From Candidatus Micrarchaeota archaeon (lineage in GTDB: Archaea; Micrarchaeota; Micrarchaeia; Micrarchaeales; CABMGC01), in assembly GCA_021827925.1 (NCBI GenBank), contig JAKATZ010000001.1, positions 1 through 51,123 on the forward strand: 51,123 nt of DNA. The letters run 5' to 3'. Numbering within the stretch: position 1 is the first letter of the stretch; each line of letters starts with the position of its first letter. This document shows, piece after piece, positions 45,813 through 51,123 of the stretch. Below the pieces are notes generated by a model that searched no databases, had not been told where the DNA came from, and worked only from the letters and a program-made list of their open reading frames with translations. A program made the position numbers and the translations under genes.

Positions 45813-46754
45813 TCACTTTACGGATGCTATTATGCCGTCTATGACTCCTTTTACGCCTATGCCGCCTGTTGAACGCACAGTAATCCTGTGACTTAATACC
45901 GGCCTCGCGAGGAATTTTATGTCTTCGCGGCTTACCTCCTTCCTCCCTTCGATCAGCGCCTTTGCCTTGGCGCACTGCATGAATGCTATGTCGGCCCTAG
46001 GACTTGCGCCCATGACAACGTGCATCTCTGTGCGTGTAGCAGCGACAACGCGCGTTATATAAGCCGCCACGTCATCAGGCAGGCTTACGCCTGCGGCTTC
46101 ACGCTGCATTGCAAGTATGTCATCGGTTGAGAGTACCCTGTTTATCCCAGAATATGTGTTGGATTCCTTAAGCCGGAGCATCTGCTGCTCCTCCTCAGGG
46201 CTCGGATAGTCGACATCGATCTTCATCAGGAATCTGTCGGCGAGAACCTTGGGCAATGGCTCAGTGCCCTCGATCTTGAGAGGATTTTGGGTTGCAAAGG
46301 CAGTGAACGGCCTTGGCAGCGCCATAGTCTCACCTCCGGCAGTGACCTGGCGCTCCTCAAGACTCTCGAGAAGGGCGCTCATCGTCTTCGGCTGCGTCCT
46401 GTTTAGCTCGTCTATTAGCAGTATGTTAGTAAAAACTGGGCCCTTGCTGAACTTCACTTCCTTTGATTCGTCAATGTACGTGTATCCAAGTATATCCTTT
46501 GGTTCCAGGTCAGGGGTTCCTTGTATCCTCTTGAAGTCTGCGTTTATCGCCTCTGCGAGTGACTTTGTCATTGTTGTCTTTGCAAGCCCCGGAGCTCCTT
46601 CTAGCAGTACATGGCCATCGGCAATGAGCCCTATAAAGAGCAGCTCAAGGGTTTCGGCCTTTCCTGCTATTCTCTTCCTGAGCTCACGCATCACGCCGCT
46701 ATAGGCCGCGTTGGCATCCATCAATACCACTGATTCCCTTATCTTATCCAGCAA
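45813..46754 (-). CDS. MoxR-type AAA+ ATPase
   Basis: Walker A is GAPGLAKT and Walker B is LLIDELNR. The protein is 313 aa. Confidence 0.85.
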   Translation of the reverse strand: MLDKIRESVVLMDANAAYSGVMRELRKRIAGKAETLELLFIGLIADGHVLLEGAPGLAKTTMTKSLAEAINADFKRIQGTPDLEPKDILGYTYIDESKEVKFSKGPVFTNILLIDELNRTQPKTMSALLESLEERQVTAGGETMALPRPFTAFATQNPLKIEGTEPLPKVLADRFLMKIDVDYPSPEEEQQMLRLKESNTYSGINRVLSTDDILAMQREAAGVSLPDDVAAYITRVVAATRTEMHVVMGASPRADIAFMQCAKAKALIEGRKEVSREDIKFLARPVLSHRITVRSTGGIGVKGVIDGIIASVK

Positions 46755-46799
46755 AAGGTTTATAATATGGCATATAGATATAATTAGAGGTGCTATTCG

Positions 46800-47138
46800 A
46801 TGATAGGCAAAGAGGCTAAGCTTGAGAGGCTTGCCAGCATACCAGAGGTGCTCGAGGTTCTCGAGGCCAGGAAAGAGGGCGGCGAGCTTGGCTACGAACA
46901 GCAGCTTGCCTATGAATACGCAAAGAAATTCTCTAAAGTGGAGGGCAAGGATGCACGCACTATGGGCAAGGAGCTTGAAGAGCTTGGGCTTAGCGCAAAG
47001 ACGGCAGTAGCTATAGTCAACGTAATGCCGCTGGAGATGATGCAGCTTAAGCAGATACTTGCAAATGAGAAGAAGGAAGTGGGAGAGGACGTAGCTGCCA
47101 AGGCAATGGCAGTTATAGAACAGCGCAGGGGAAAGTAA
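46800..47138 (+). CDS. rpoF: DNA-directed RNA polymerase subunit Rpo4 (F)
   Basis: The size, the pattern PEVLEVLEARKE..YEQQLAYEYAKKF, and the conserved adjacency to a DUF655 gene all support the call. Confidence 0.75.
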   Translation: MIGKEAKLERLASIPEVLEVLEARKEGGELGYEQQLAYEYAKKFSKVEGKDARTMGKELEELGLSAKTAVAIVNVMPLEMMQLKQILANEKKEVGEDVAAKAMAVIEQRRGK

Positions 47139-47162
47139 GGTGCAGCTTCTTGGGGGATATTC

Positions 47163-47747
47163 ATGCAGGAGGGAGAGTACAAGAGAGAGGATCTTGAAGA
47201 ATACGCGCTAGTCCTAGATTACCTTCCTACCGGGAAATCCTTCTCGATAAAATCTGAGCCTGTTGTGCAGATGCTTGGGGAAACAAGGTTTACGCTTCTT
47301 GAGGCAGTGCCAAAGGTACAGGAGATAAAGATTGGCGAGAGGATATACATAGGAAGGGGAGTCAGGGAGAAGATCTCGCTCATACGAGGAAGGCTTAGCT
47401 ATGAAAATCTTACGGAGGGATCCAGGAACGAGCTGCCGAATGCCATAAGCACAGTAATAAAAGGGAACGAGGCGCGCTTTGTCAGCTTCTTCAACAGTGC
47501 ATCGCCGCTAAACATAAGGATGCATTCCCTTGAGCTGCTGCCAGGAGTAGGAAAGAAGCATCTTGAAGCCATACTCGAGGCGAGGGACCAGAAGGACTTC
47601 GAGAGCTTTGCAGACATAGCAGCGAGGGTGCCTCTGCTCCAGGATCCGGTCAAACTTCTTACAGAAAGAGTGCTTATTGAACTGAAAGGGGATACAAGGT
47701 TCTATATACTGGCGAGGCCGCCGCATCTCAAGCATGACTTCGCGTGA
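47163..47747 (+). CDS. DUF655 (COG1491-type) putative RNA-binding protein
   Basis: The EEYALVLDYLPTGKS start and a C-terminal HhH-like segment are present. It is the typical neighbour of rpoF. Confidence 0.7.
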   Translation: MQEGEYKREDLEEYALVLDYLPTGKSFSIKSEPVVQMLGETRFTLLEAVPKVQEIKIGERIYIGRGVREKISLIRGRLSYENLTEGSRNELPNAISTVIKGNEARFVSFFNSASPLNIRMHSLELLPGVGKKHLEAILEARDQKDFESFADIAARVPLLQDPVKLLTERVLIELKGDTRFYILARPPHLKHDFA

Positions 47748-47772: not shown

Positions 47773-48234
47773 TTGCAAGATGTTTTTGTGCAGATAAGGA
47801 TAACAGCAGAGAAAAGAGAGGAGATTAGCAGGGGTATAGAAGCAATAAAGAGCCTTGGCAGCGATAGGCCGTCCTACCTCCCGCTCATCAGGTCCGGCAT
47901 CTCTGCCATCTGCATGGCACTGAGGGGTGGAATTGAAGAGGCACTTTCAAGAAGAATAGCAGGAGAGGGGGGCGGGGCTCTTGAAAAGCTGCGCAGAGGC
48001 GAGTACGGACCCGATGACGCCTTTGCAGACGTTGTGATGTGCTTCAGGAAGGCAGCGGCTGCGGAGCTTAGAAAAGTCGGAAGGAAGCATGGAATGACAA
48101 AGGAAGAAGTAGAAAGGCTTGGCTCGCATCTCAGCTCAATGCTCGATATGGAAGCGAGAGTCGCATGTGAAAATGTCCTAAGGAGGAAGGAAGACCTTGC
48201 ACGCCATGCATCTAAGGAACAGAATAGCCATTGA
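47773..48234 (+). CDS. Hypothetical protein
   Basis: This rests on the ORF alone. Its 3' end overlaps the convergent pilin-like gene. Confidence 0.35.
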   Translation: MQDVFVQIRITAEKREEISRGIEAIKSLGSDRPSYLPLIRSGISAICMALRGGIEEALSRRIAGEGGGALEKLRRGEYGPDDAFADVVMCFRKAAAAELRKVGRKHGMTKEEVERLGSHLSSMLDMEARVACENVLRRKEDLARHASKEQNSH

Positions 48235-49144
48235 GCCAAGATCCTGTGAACACCACATTGCTTGGATTCCCGGTTTCCCCATTTCCCGAATAGTCATAGG
48301 TATTTCCGTTCAGAGGCCACCAGCCGAGGAGGTTCTGCAGATTTACAGGCGAACCCCCTATGCCTTCGCTATATAGAGTGGCTATCGCAGTGCCGTCTAG
48401 CGAAGCGTTATAGAATTGCATATTTGAGACCATGCCGTCCATACGCTTGCATGCGCACCATGCCTCCCTTCCTATCTCAAAAGGCTGGCTGGCCCACGAC
48501 CATGCAGTTACGCCGTTTAGGGAGGCCATAGGCTTCCCGTTGATGTAATAAGTCATCGTAAAACCGTTGTAAGTGCCGGCTATGAATACCCACTTGTTCA
48601 GTGGAAAGTATGACGACGAAACATAAATCTGCGCGTTCTGCGCATTGCTGGAACCTTCGCCGATCTGAAAGCCGGCTGTCGAAGAGGTGCGAAAGAGGTG
48701 GAATCCCTGGTAATTGCCCAGGTAGGTGCCCAGTATCATTCCCTGGTCCGTTATCGGCTGGTTTAGATAAACCCACGCTGAGATCGAGAACATAGAGTTT
48801 GAGTTAAGAAGCGCTGATGAGGGTATCTGTATATAGGATCCGATATTTGGATTGAAGCCTGTCACTGTTTCAGGTATTTCACCGTTGCATACTCCCTGCA
48901 AGCTGATATCTTCTAGGCTTTGAGGGCCTTGTGGCCTGTGCACGGAGCACGCGCCAGGAGCCGACCTTGGAGCGAAAGTGAGCGGATTGAAAACCCCAAG
49001 ATAGGAAAGAGCTGCAAGCACTATGGTTATAATAAGCACAGCCCAGCCGTAGGTAAGCAAGTATTCCATCGCCGACTGGGCCTTTTTGCTGCGCAGAATG
49101 CTCATGTCATACCACACCGGGATAAGAACCAGGTAGAGATGCAC
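48212..49144 (-). CDS. Class III signal peptide / LamG-like protein, paralogue 3
   Basis: The family motifs are KKAQSAMEYLLTYGWAVLIITIVL, FSISAWVY, VSNMQFYNASLDGTAIATLY and WWPLNGNTYDYSGNGETG. The likely start is at about 49105 (MSILRSKKAQ). Confidence 0.7.
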   Translation of the reverse strand: MHLYLVLIPVWYDMSILRSKKAQSAMEYLLTYGWAVLIITIVLAALSYLGVFNPLTFAPRSAPGACSVHRPQGPQSLEDISLQGVCNGEIPETVTGFNPNIGSYIQIPSSALLNSNSMFSISAWVYLNQPITDQGMILGTYLGNYQGFHLFRTSSTAGFQIGEGSSNAQNAQIYVSSSYFPLNKWVFIAGTYNGFTMTYYINGKPMASLNGVTAWSWASQPFEIGREAWCACKRMDGMVSNMQFYNASLDGTAIATLYSEGIGGSPVNLQNLLGWWPLNGNTYDYSGNGETGNPSNVVFTGSWLNGYSVP

Positions 49145-49195: not shown

Positions 49196-49486
49196 TCATC
49201 GTGCGAGTTCAAGATGCCTCTGCGGCACTATGACCTGCCTTTTCATGGATTTTGAGACATCGAACTCGACAACATAAGCAGAGCCTCTCTTTTCTACTAT
49301 CTTTCCTATCCTGCCGCGGTATCTTGGATGGGGAATGTCACGGAAGTTACCCTTCGGAGTTATTACGACCATGCTTCCCAGATCCAGCCGCTTAACCAGA
49401 GAGGGTATGCCAAGGCTTGAAGGCTTGTTGTGCCTAGCCAAGTGTCTGCTTCTGCCAGAGAAAAGACCGTGTGAACGCTGCGACAT
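49196..49486 (-). CDS. rpl21e: Ribosomal protein L21e
   Basis: The protein is 96 aa with an SH3-like pattern, HPRYRGRIGKIVEKRGSAYVVEF. Confidence 0.85.
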   Translation of the reverse strand: MSQRSHGLFSGRSRHLARHNKPSSLGIPSLVKRLDLGSMVVITPKGNFRDIPHPRYRGRIGKIVEKRGSAYVVEFDVSKSMKRQVIVPQRHLELAR

Positions 49487-49585
49487 CTGCTCAACTCAAA
49501 ATCCAACATCAGATTGATGCATATCATTTATAGAAAAACATATAAATACCCTTTCATTGTATCATAACTGTTCCATAGTGGTTTG

Positions 49586-49903
49586 ATGAGCACTTCGGCT
49601 AAGCACAAAGGGATAACCCTCCATCCTGAATTCAAGATAGAGAACATTGTGGCGAGCGCAGACCTGGGAGTAGAACTTGACCTTTACGCGATAGCCAAAG
49701 CTTCTGCGGATGTGGACTACGAACCGGAACAGTTCCCTGGGGCTATATACAAGATCCATGACCCCAAGACGGCGCTCCTTCTTTTCAAGAATGGCAAGAT
49801 AATATGCACTGGTTCTAAGACTGAAGAAGACATAAAGAGAGCTATAGACCAGACCATCAAGACAGTGAAGAAGTTCGTGATAGTAAGGGATACTGCTTCC
49901 TGA
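49586..49903 (+). CDS. Single-repeat TATA-box-binding-protein-like protein (about 105 aa, half the size of a canonical TBP)
   Basis: KIENIVASADLGVELDL, YEPEQFPGAIYKI, PKTALLLFKNGKIICTGSKTEEDIKRAI are TBP repeat hallmarks. Only one repeat is present before the stop. TATA-like CATATAAATA lies about 40 nt upstream. Confidence 0.7.
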   Translation: MSTSAKHKGITLHPEFKIENIVASADLGVELDLYAIAKASADVDYEPEQFPGAIYKIHDPKTALLLFKNGKIICTGSKTEEDIKRAIDQTIKTVKKFVIVRDTAS

Positions 49904-49988: not shown

Positions 49989-51123
49989 TCATGTACAGAG
50001 AGCATAATACCACTGCCCGGTCGCTGTGTTCGGCACAGCCTCGCAGGTTCCCGTGCATGAAGGATACCCTGCACTGTAGCAGGTTGTACAGCTAACGGAG
50101 TCGCATTGGGGTATAGTAGTTGTGGATGTTGATACCGATGTCGTACTTGAGGCAGTTGTAGTTGAAGTCGACTGGCAGCTTACCTGTACTGTCGCCTGAC
50201 CATATACAGCACTGTAGTCAGTTCCAACGGTACAGGTTCCTGCGACATTGTTATTGCACACAGGCGATGTACCCCCCTGCGCAGTCGAACCGTAAGTGTA
50301 GCAGCCCCACACAGCATAGGTTCCGGTCGGGTTGCTGGAGCAGGAAGTGGACTCGGAGCTGCATCCTGTCGCACCAGTTGCAAGGACAGGACACTGTATT
50401 CCAGGATACGTGGATCCTCCCTCATAGCATACTCCAGCGGTCAGCGGGGGAGTAGGACACGTATTAGACTCTGCGACATTAGGCGTGCAGCCGCACCCTG
50501 GAACAGAGCATCCAGTGAAAGGAGAGTAATACTGATTTTCTACCCCTCCTATTCCGAAACTTGATGTCCATTCAGTGTAGAACGAACCGCCTCCGCCTCC
50601 AGACACGCTTGTGGTCGTACTGACAGTGGTGGAGGTGGTTGATAGTGTGGAGGTGAATTCAGCCACAACAGTCACAGGACTGTCCATAGTTACTGTGACT
50701 GTGCTTGTAGTGTAGGTATTCATGCCGGATCCCGTTGTCACGACCCAGTCGGAGAAGCCGTAGCCTGCACTTGCAGACTGCGTAACTGTCACCTGCGTTC
50801 CGTAGCTATAGGTGCCGCTGCCCGGCGAAACAGTACCGCCAGTGCTTGGACTCGCGGAAGTATCAAGGGATTCGGAGAGCAGCTGAAACGCCGCAGTCTC
50901 CACAGTAGGACCCGTTATGGTTATAGTAGGAGAAGCGCTTGTGCCGGAGTAGCAGCCCGGACCGGAGCATGTCCATCCGGTGAACTCGTATCCGGTCGCA
51001 GGGGTCTCTCCGAGCGTTATCGAGCTGCCGTAGCTGTACGTTCCGCTGCCCGGGGAGACCGTGCCTCCTGAAGCAGGCACGGCATTTTCTGTGAACGATT
51101 CGGGTATTAGCTGGAAGTTGGCG
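49989..51123 (-). CDS. Secreted repeat protein with InlB-B-repeat-like units, Thr/Ser linkers and Cys-rich modules; the 5' end runs off the window
   Basis: There are two units of about 80 aa: GGTVSPGSGTYSYGSSITLGETPATGYEFTGWT and GGTVSPGSGTYSYGTQVTVTQSASAGYGFSDWV. T/S-rich linkers separate two Cys-rich segments. The reading frame stays open to 51123. Confidence 0.65.
   Translation of the reverse strand, partial: ANFQLIPESFTENAVPASGGTVSPGSGTYSYGSSITLGETPATGYEFTGWTCSGPGCYSGTSASPTITITGPTVETAAFQLLSESLDTSASPSTGGTVSPGSGTYSYGTQVTVTQSASAGYGFSDWVVTTGSGMNTYTTSTVTVTMDSPVTVVAEFTSTLSTTSTTVSTTTSVSGGGGGSFYTEWTSSFGIGGVENQYYSPFTGCSVPGCGCTPNVAESNTCPTPPLTAGVCYEGGSTYPGIQCPVLATGATGCSSESTSCSSNPTGTYAVWGCYTYGSTAQGGTSPVCNNNVAGTCTVGTDYSAVYGQATVQVSCQSTSTTTASSTTSVSTSTTTIPQCDSVSCTTCYSAGYPSCTGTCEAVPNTATGQWYYALCT

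Follow-up and report, generated by a model that had tools for sequence, protein, structure and literature searches.

In archaea and eukaryotes, every transcription start requires TBP, whose two-lobe chain is considered to have been fixed before these two lineages split. For the TBP ancestor, a non-covalent pair of single lobes has long been proposed. What, then, is to be made of an archaeal gene that encodes one TBP lobe and then stops? Such a gene lies in the stretch of DNA analysed here (the window), 51,123 nucleotides from a Candidatus Micrarchaeota archaeon. The locus raises three questions in turn: whether the gene is real; whether it stands in place of the usual two-lobe gene or beside it; and how a single lobe might do the work of two.

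The one-lobe TBP gene occupies positions 49586..49903 on the forward strand and encodes 105 aa plus a stop, running from an ATG at 49586 to a TGA at 49901-49903. An alternative TTG start lies one codon upstream, at 49583. The ATG is preferred because of the orthologues and because of a putative Shine-Dalgarno element, GTGGT (49578..49582, forward strand), 4-8 nt before it; GTGGT or GTGAT is found at the equivalent place in most orthologous loci. The encoded protein has three parts: a basic N-tail (residues 1-15); one lobe with the order S1-H1-S2-S3-S4-S5-H2 (approximately residues 16-97); and a short C-tail. Its match to the Pfam profile PF00352 covers residues 15-97 of the protein and positions 1-85 of 85 in the profile (E 1.9e-30; 104.9 bits, the cut-off being 22.9 bits), and therefore represents exactly one full repeat. 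An earlier sequence-only reading had described a stand-alone ORF with one complete TBP repeat, and both the ORF call and the full-length profile match confirm this. The family motifs quoted there (IENIVASADL, YEPEQFPG, ALLLFKNGKIICTGSK, and EEDIKRA) were all found. That reading had also seen no second repeat near the gene; a six-frame tblastn search extends the observation to the whole 51-kb window, in which the next best match has an E of 0.99. The polypeptide does not hold two tandem lobes: there is one lobe, and then the stop.

The lobe is predicted to fold as its sequence implies. A moderately confident AF2 monomer model (pLDDT 67), in which the first strand is badly defined, reproduces the S1-H1-S2-S3-S4-S5-H2 order and, when compared with M. 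jannaschii TBP (2z8u), superposes on one of its lobes with an rmsd of 1.0 Å over 75 residues. All 44 Foldseek matches to this model at E <= 1e-3 are TBPs, with 2z8u at the top.

Is the gene what it appears to be? It might instead be an artefact or a dying gene: a collapsed two-lobe gene, a frameshifted fragment, or a pseudogene. When the cores of a two-lobe gene are identical, short-read assemblers can collapse them and so produce a false one-lobe gene, and one relative resembles such a product. The one-lobe ORF of locus L135 combines the beginning of lobe 1 with the final part of lobe 2 from the two-lobe gene at L134; the two loci come from sister peat samples, and their flanks are 98.7% identical. 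L135 may reflect a true polymorphism in which the gene has collapsed, or the assembler may have merged the two lobes across an identical core of 135 nt; part of the one-lobe family count could therefore be inflated. A frameshifted variant also occurs: P0169 (111 aa; …GKIICILMFRGEALL…) is the 50% cluster representative in a large protein library, and the family is consequently under-represented in searches of that library.

The assemblies argue against an artefact at the window locus. An identical 105-aa protein, always with the same neighbours, is present on 23 independently assembled contigs that were produced by different assemblers (ENA, with megahit; four NCBI MAGs; JGI; and Logan). In each of three runs (X1, X2, and X3), one unbroken 5288-bp contig at k=31 spans the gene with 0 differences. 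Depth across the N-tail, and across the C-tail and stop, is that of this single contig, and no extra contig over either tail region was found among the k=31 contigs; hence, there is no "loop" contig that would connect the lobe's end with a second start. The strain variant seen in X4, X5, and X7 carries 2 substitutions in the coding sequence, both at third codon positions, along with 9 substitutions and 2 indels in the ~100 nt after the stop. Relatives assembled from Nanopore reads with Flye (L078, L082, L084, and L090, all MAGs of the Microflora Danica catalogue; PMC12313526) also bear the one-lobe gene, and collapse of identical cores is not expected in such assemblies. (Run X4 also contains a contig of 4.7 kb, at a depth of 26.5 versus 10.6, in which the YEPEQFPG-coding stretch occurs twice, 271 nt apart. 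This is the two-lobe TBP of another community member, not of the window organism.)

The gene belongs to a large family. When a single genome was scanned for each GTDB species, 194 relatives were matched; the best 80 of these 194 genome matches are all one-lobe ORFs of 96-134 aa, with 70-89% identity, in Micrarchaeota MAGs from mine drainage, peat, soil, and hot springs. No second repeat was found within 4 kb, in any frame, at these best 80 loci. A scan of JGI metagenomes gave one-lobe genes at 77 of its 80 best loci and two-lobe genes at the other 3. The one-lobe family is thus present in at least 80 Micrarchaeota species genomes and at 77 metagenome loci, and the conserved homologues in related lineages for which the sequence-only reading had proposed to search are widespread.

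Moreover, the one-lobe tbp is under strong purifying selection: among 81 orthologues, the median pairwise dN/dS is 0.044, with a pS of 0.72. An 82-residue core is almost invariant across the family. F50, F67, and the segment Y45-E46-P47-E48-Q49 show no variation among 49 family members and are aligned with identical residues in 2z8u and 1pcz, both lobes of which fit the family profile about equally well. These residues presumably form the DNA-kinking phenylalanine pair and the acidic stirrup that binds TFB, with the roles that they have in TBP-DNA-TFB structures such as 1AIS. Constraint of this kind, a conserved promoter (below), and 23 assemblies with the same ORF establish that the gene is not a fragment. 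Nothing points to a frameshift or misassembly, and the pseudogene-like drift against which the sequence-only reading had warned is absent. The artefact explanation is therefore largely refuted, and we give it almost no weight.

The family has mostly gone unrecognised in annotation. Against the NCBIfam TBP models, the best score is 100.6 bits and the cut-offs are 181-347; the threshold is missed because of length, one lobe only being present. This sub-threshold score explains the "hypothetical protein" labels in the NCBI MAGs. If the one-lobe protein is what it seems, a core transcription factor of these genomes is labelled "hypothetical" for want of reaching a curated-model threshold.

The upstream region suggests that the gene is expressed. 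The TATA-like CATATAAATA noted in the sequence-only reading spans 49539-49548, 38-47 nt 5' of the ATG, and its presence is borne out as part of a larger putative promoter element conserved in orthologues: CATATAAATACCCTTTC (49539..49555, forward strand), a TATA box with a conserved CCTT flank. Allowing at most one mismatch, ATATAAATACC(TT) lies 5' of 66 of the 76 one-lobe loci, approximately 38-46 nt before the ATG. Thirteen positions of the ATATAAATACC element are nearly invariant, while synonymous sites in the coding sequence are near saturation. The element occurs once in the window, and it was not found in the promoters of two-lobe Micrarchaeota relatives. Conservation of this non-coding element argues for expression of the one-lobe tbp, perhaps with autoregulation. 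In the upstream regions of L012-L090, a palindromic box, TTTATAAA or ATTTAAAT, often stands ~20 nt after ATATAAATACC(TT), and it could be a candidate autoregulatory site for a symmetric TBP. Upstream of the 50 genes in the window, a survey for TATA boxes that are palindromic or unusual in some other way gave no clear pattern, and a scan for bacterial-type promoters and terminators detected nothing, as expected in an archaeon. Three metatranscriptomes of the same study contained no sequence from the organism, L21e included, and so are uninformative on expression.

Granted a real gene, does it stand beside a normal two-lobe TBP, as an accessory paralogue that acts as a regulator, as a competitor for TATA or TFB, or as a specialised factor? 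Proteins with a single TBP-domain lobe are on record alongside full TBPs (PMC3597702; PMC7221094), and the sequence-only reading had itself raised a truncated paralogue or an antagonist of a full-length TBP. The chromosomal position points elsewhere. Divergently upstream of the one-lobe tbp lies the gene for ribosomal protein L21e (49196..49486, reverse strand; PF01157, E 1.2e-11), which serves as the synteny anchor and has the same arrangement in 71 of the 80 species loci. RpoF, DUF655, and MoxR ATPase genes usually accompany L21e at the species loci. In the window, this block extends over 45813..47747 (MoxR-type AAA ATPase, reverse; RpoF/Rpb4, forward; DUF655, forward; Pfam matches on contigs identical to the window), and phmmer identified it in most of L011-L090 as well. 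A contig end interrupts six further loci of the 80.

The species loci that lack L21e (L015, L017, and L023) were considered as second copies and ruled out: they keep the canonical downstream neighbours VTT/pelota, and only their upstream sides are rearranged, one with a DDE transposase. (That transposase, at 2498-3925 of L015, lies directly 5' of tbp. At 7270-11597 of L106, an island encoding an AAA_14/DUF4143 ATPase and a DUF3670-SNF2 helicase lies between tbp and the usual VTT neighbour. Both insertions adjoining tbp are of a mobile or defence type.)

The same L21e slot holds two-lobe TBPs in other Micrarchaeota lineages (P0002, P0005, P0007, and P0015; 54-68% identical), and also a diverged one-lobe type, P0154. 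By position, the one-lobe gene is thus orthologous to the two-lobe tbp found in sister lineages, and in none of about 150 one-lobe loci does a two-lobe gene occupy the canonical tbp slot. A dN/dS of about 0.04, together with invariant DNA- and TFB-contact motifs, is the conservation of a core factor rather than of an accessory. Three protein searches lead to the same view: the nearest two-lobe TBPs belong to other lineages, in which they occupy the same slot; and, among the longest contigs compared, no two-lobe TBP listed in these searches lies on a large contig that bears the one-lobe gene. A truncated paralogue or antagonist is accordingly disfavoured, the gene having kept the canonical slot by L21e and every DNA- and TFB-contact motif, and an accessory role of any kind appears improbable.

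Other neighbours complete the picture of the locus. A LamG-domain protein gene (48212-49144, reverse strand) has the translated start KKAQSAMEYLLTYGWAVLIITIVLAAL, which we take to resemble an archaeal type IV pilin-like (class III) signal peptide. Its product is probably a pilin-like surface protein, and the true start of the gene is likely an internal ATG (MSILRSKK...). Convergent with tbp is the gene for an InlB B-repeat (Flg_new_2) surface protein (49989-51122, reverse strand), which runs off the end of the window. This protein is rich in Thr/Ser and in Cys; on longer contigs of the same strain it measures 810-886 aa, and strains differ in its length (L001 versus L002). Those longer contigs also carry a normal TFB gene beyond the window end, ~5 kb downstream of the one-lobe tbp (9638-10660 of L001); it encodes 340 aa, with a Zn ribbon and two TFIIB cyclin repeats.

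How did a two-lobe slot come to hold a one-lobe gene? The nearest two-lobe relatives offer a clue, for their two lobes are unusually alike. N-lobe versus C-lobe identity is 57-91% in these proteins; the median for 141 TBPs is 39%, with a range of 28-63%. At the DNA level, the likeness is patchy. In P0002 (3577-4125 of L095), ~195 nt are identical between the lobes, following a diverged first 40 nt; P0005 (8001-8549 of L093) contains an identical island of ~93 nt; and P0272 (5001-5591 of L113) likewise has an identical or nearly identical tract flanked by diverged sequence. Across these three genes, the identical or nearly identical tracts range from 93 to ~195 nt. The lobes of P0007 and P0015 are 68% and 58% identical overall. 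Such mosaic likeness is the signature of intragenic gene conversion, ongoing in Micrarchaeota tbp.

This suggests a route to the one-lobe gene. The ancestor would have been an ordinary two-lobe tbp at the same chromosomal position, whose lobes were kept nearly alike by intragenic gene conversion. With cores so alike, in-frame loss of one unit would be easy: recombination between them could delete one unit while retaining promoter, start, and stop. The order of these events at the tbp locus is reconstructed from present-day genes. The window lobe is itself equidistant from N and C lobes (57% versus 58%), and every segment is alike in this respect, so that a mosaic of N-lobe start and C-lobe end is not resolvable within it.

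The locus has moved in the opposite direction as well. P0271-P0274 (195-196 aa) are each two complete one-lobe units joined head to tail, with a linker made of C-tail plus N-tail in which the start Met is replaced (...YILTEKK|LAKRFKLHTEF...). Head-to-tail fusions are also listed at L134, L140, and L167, and another, interrupted by a contig end, is at 2-412 of L087. P0272 sits at the same L21e locus as the one-lobe genes. Both of its lobes fall deep inside the one-lobe clade, in a subclade of 23 rows with support 98/98, the one-lobe clade being separated from the lobes of other lineages with support 100/98. The two lobes share 94-98% identity with stand-alone lobes and 85% with the lobe of the window. 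The AF2 model of P0272 is a full saddle (pLDDT 91.6; TM 0.87-0.92 to solved TBPs), with first strands that are long and confident.

In a global repeat tree (116 rows by 82 columns), resolution is too weak for the clade to be assigned to the N or C lobes of archaea at large. The one-lobe clade is nested among the two-lobe TBPs of Micrarchaeota, therefore implying secondary collapse, and the re-fusions nested within it imply a one-lobe state that is derived, long-lived, and reversible. On the evidence of these sequence relationships, the state is not a relic of the pre-duplication ancestor; the nesting leaves that idea, implicit in the sequence-only reading, unsupported.

What remains is how the protein might work. 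A single 105-aa chain would be unable to form the DNA-binding saddle by itself. Two subunits could pair via the first β-strand and so complete the ten-stranded sheet; with two identical subunits, the most likely case, the saddle would be exactly symmetric, which is one of the possibilities that the sequence-only reading had raised. Each subunit would contribute one DNA-kinking pair (F50 and F67) and one acidic stirrup (Y45-E46-P47-E48) for TFB. Which way transcription runs would then depend on TFB and BRE, which already largely set promoter direction in archaea. We regard it as reasonably probable that the one-lobe protein is the main TBP of this Micrarchaeota lineage and works as a homodimer. 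Within this interpretation, which draws its dimerisation, TATA binding, and TFB recruitment from sequence comparison, a non-covalent dimer is most likely and is probably a homodimer.

The chief competitor to a homodimer is a TBP of two genes, in which a second, unlinked, and somewhat different one-lobe gene supplies the partner. An A-B heterodimer, possibly together with A2 and B2, would give back some asymmetry to the saddle. Split genes are common in DPANN archaea, and two divergent one-lobe types do occur at non-canonical metagenome loci: L190 (TPR-hyp-TBP-hyp-AbiEii) and L192/L194 (PyrB-TBP-Tyr/TrpRS-RFC). In a profile search with the odd-locus lobes L190-L192, two-lobe TBPs dominated the matches, and no second-copy family was defined. 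Several observations weigh against a second gene. Only one species genome among the 80 has two matches (L047 and L051); these encode identical proteins at different coverage and are apparently strain copies. The three loci with an odd context at >= 70% identity are the canonical one, rearranged on its upstream side. Among the 80 best metagenome loci, which reach down to 57% identity to the query, the 651-kb contig of L138 and the 489-kb contig of L190 contribute one lobe gene each. Finally, the equal distance of the window lobe from N and C lobes means that it shows no specialisation as either half. A two-gene TBP is thus unlikely, although less so than the accessory role considered above.

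The homodimer can be taken further. In its fullest form, the one-lobe symmetric homodimer would be the only TBP in this genome and in most Micrarchaeales, at a locus that has passed from two lobes to one by conversion-driven collapse and from one to two by fusion. We put this forward tentatively, as having slightly less than an even chance of holding in all its parts. If true, it would give the postulated architecture of the TBP ancestor its first natural example, and would open the duplication-fusion origin of TBP to study, and to biochemical test, in living sequences. A whole archaeal order using a one-lobe subunit would mean that TBP can do without the covalent link and without any lobe asymmetry. 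Such an order would also provide natural proteins for testing the homodimeric-ancestor hypothesis; a test of promoter polarity under a symmetric TBP, with TFB and BRE alone; and insight into how repeat proteins collapse and re-form.

How does this protein compare with known TBPs? In the searchable literature, we found no description of a one-lobe TBP at the tbp locus of Micrarchaeota (ARMAN and Mancarchaeum included). TBP has been counted in about 89% of tested DPANN genomes, with its size unmentioned (PMC8407392). Single-lobe TBP paralogues are already known, and a one-lobe gene in place of tbp appears, within that literature, to be new.

Canonical archaeal TBP consists of two PF00352 lobes in one chain of ~180 aa (2Z8U from M. 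jannaschii, 1PCZ/1AIS from P. woesei, and 1MP9 from S. acidocaldarius). The window lobe has the same fold, is 40-50% identical to either lobe, and retains both DNA-kinking phenylalanines and the YEPEQ stirrup. It differs in that each chain has only one lobe, so that the saddle must form between chains. One-lobe proteins also have a variable basic N-tail (median 18 aa, net charge +3) and lack a long acidic C-tail.

Two groups of single-lobe proteins invite comparison. TbpA of Halobacterium, with its haloarchaeal paralogues, consists of one free-standing lobe and groups with true TBP lobes, as here; however, it is one of several paralogues alongside the full-length TBPs of the same cell, and is non-essential (PMC3597702). 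The Micrarchaeota gene, in contrast, replaces tbp at the housekeeping locus in at least 80 species under strong constraint. The monopartite TBP-domain proteins of the Thermococcales are similar in size to the window protein (91-97 aa, e.g. P. furiosus NP_578195; PMC3597702, Table 3), and are likewise archaeal and single-domain. By their published description, they have diverged strongly from TBP, group in a separate cluster, and occur alongside a normal TBP (PMC3597702), which sets them apart. The window protein is close to bona fide TBP lobes: 49-50% identical to those of M. jannaschii TBP, and up to 68% identical to those of Micrarchaeota TBPs.

The nearest relatives are the homogenised two-lobe TBPs of other orders of Micrarchaeota (P0002, P0004, P0005, and the Anstonellales-type P0278 and P0309), among which a lobe of P0002 comes closest to the window protein, at up to 68% identity. 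These proteins share the L21e-adjacent locus, and their lobes are functionally symmetric enough to tolerate conversion. They differ in being covalent two-lobe chains, and the promoters of their genes lack ATATAAATACC.
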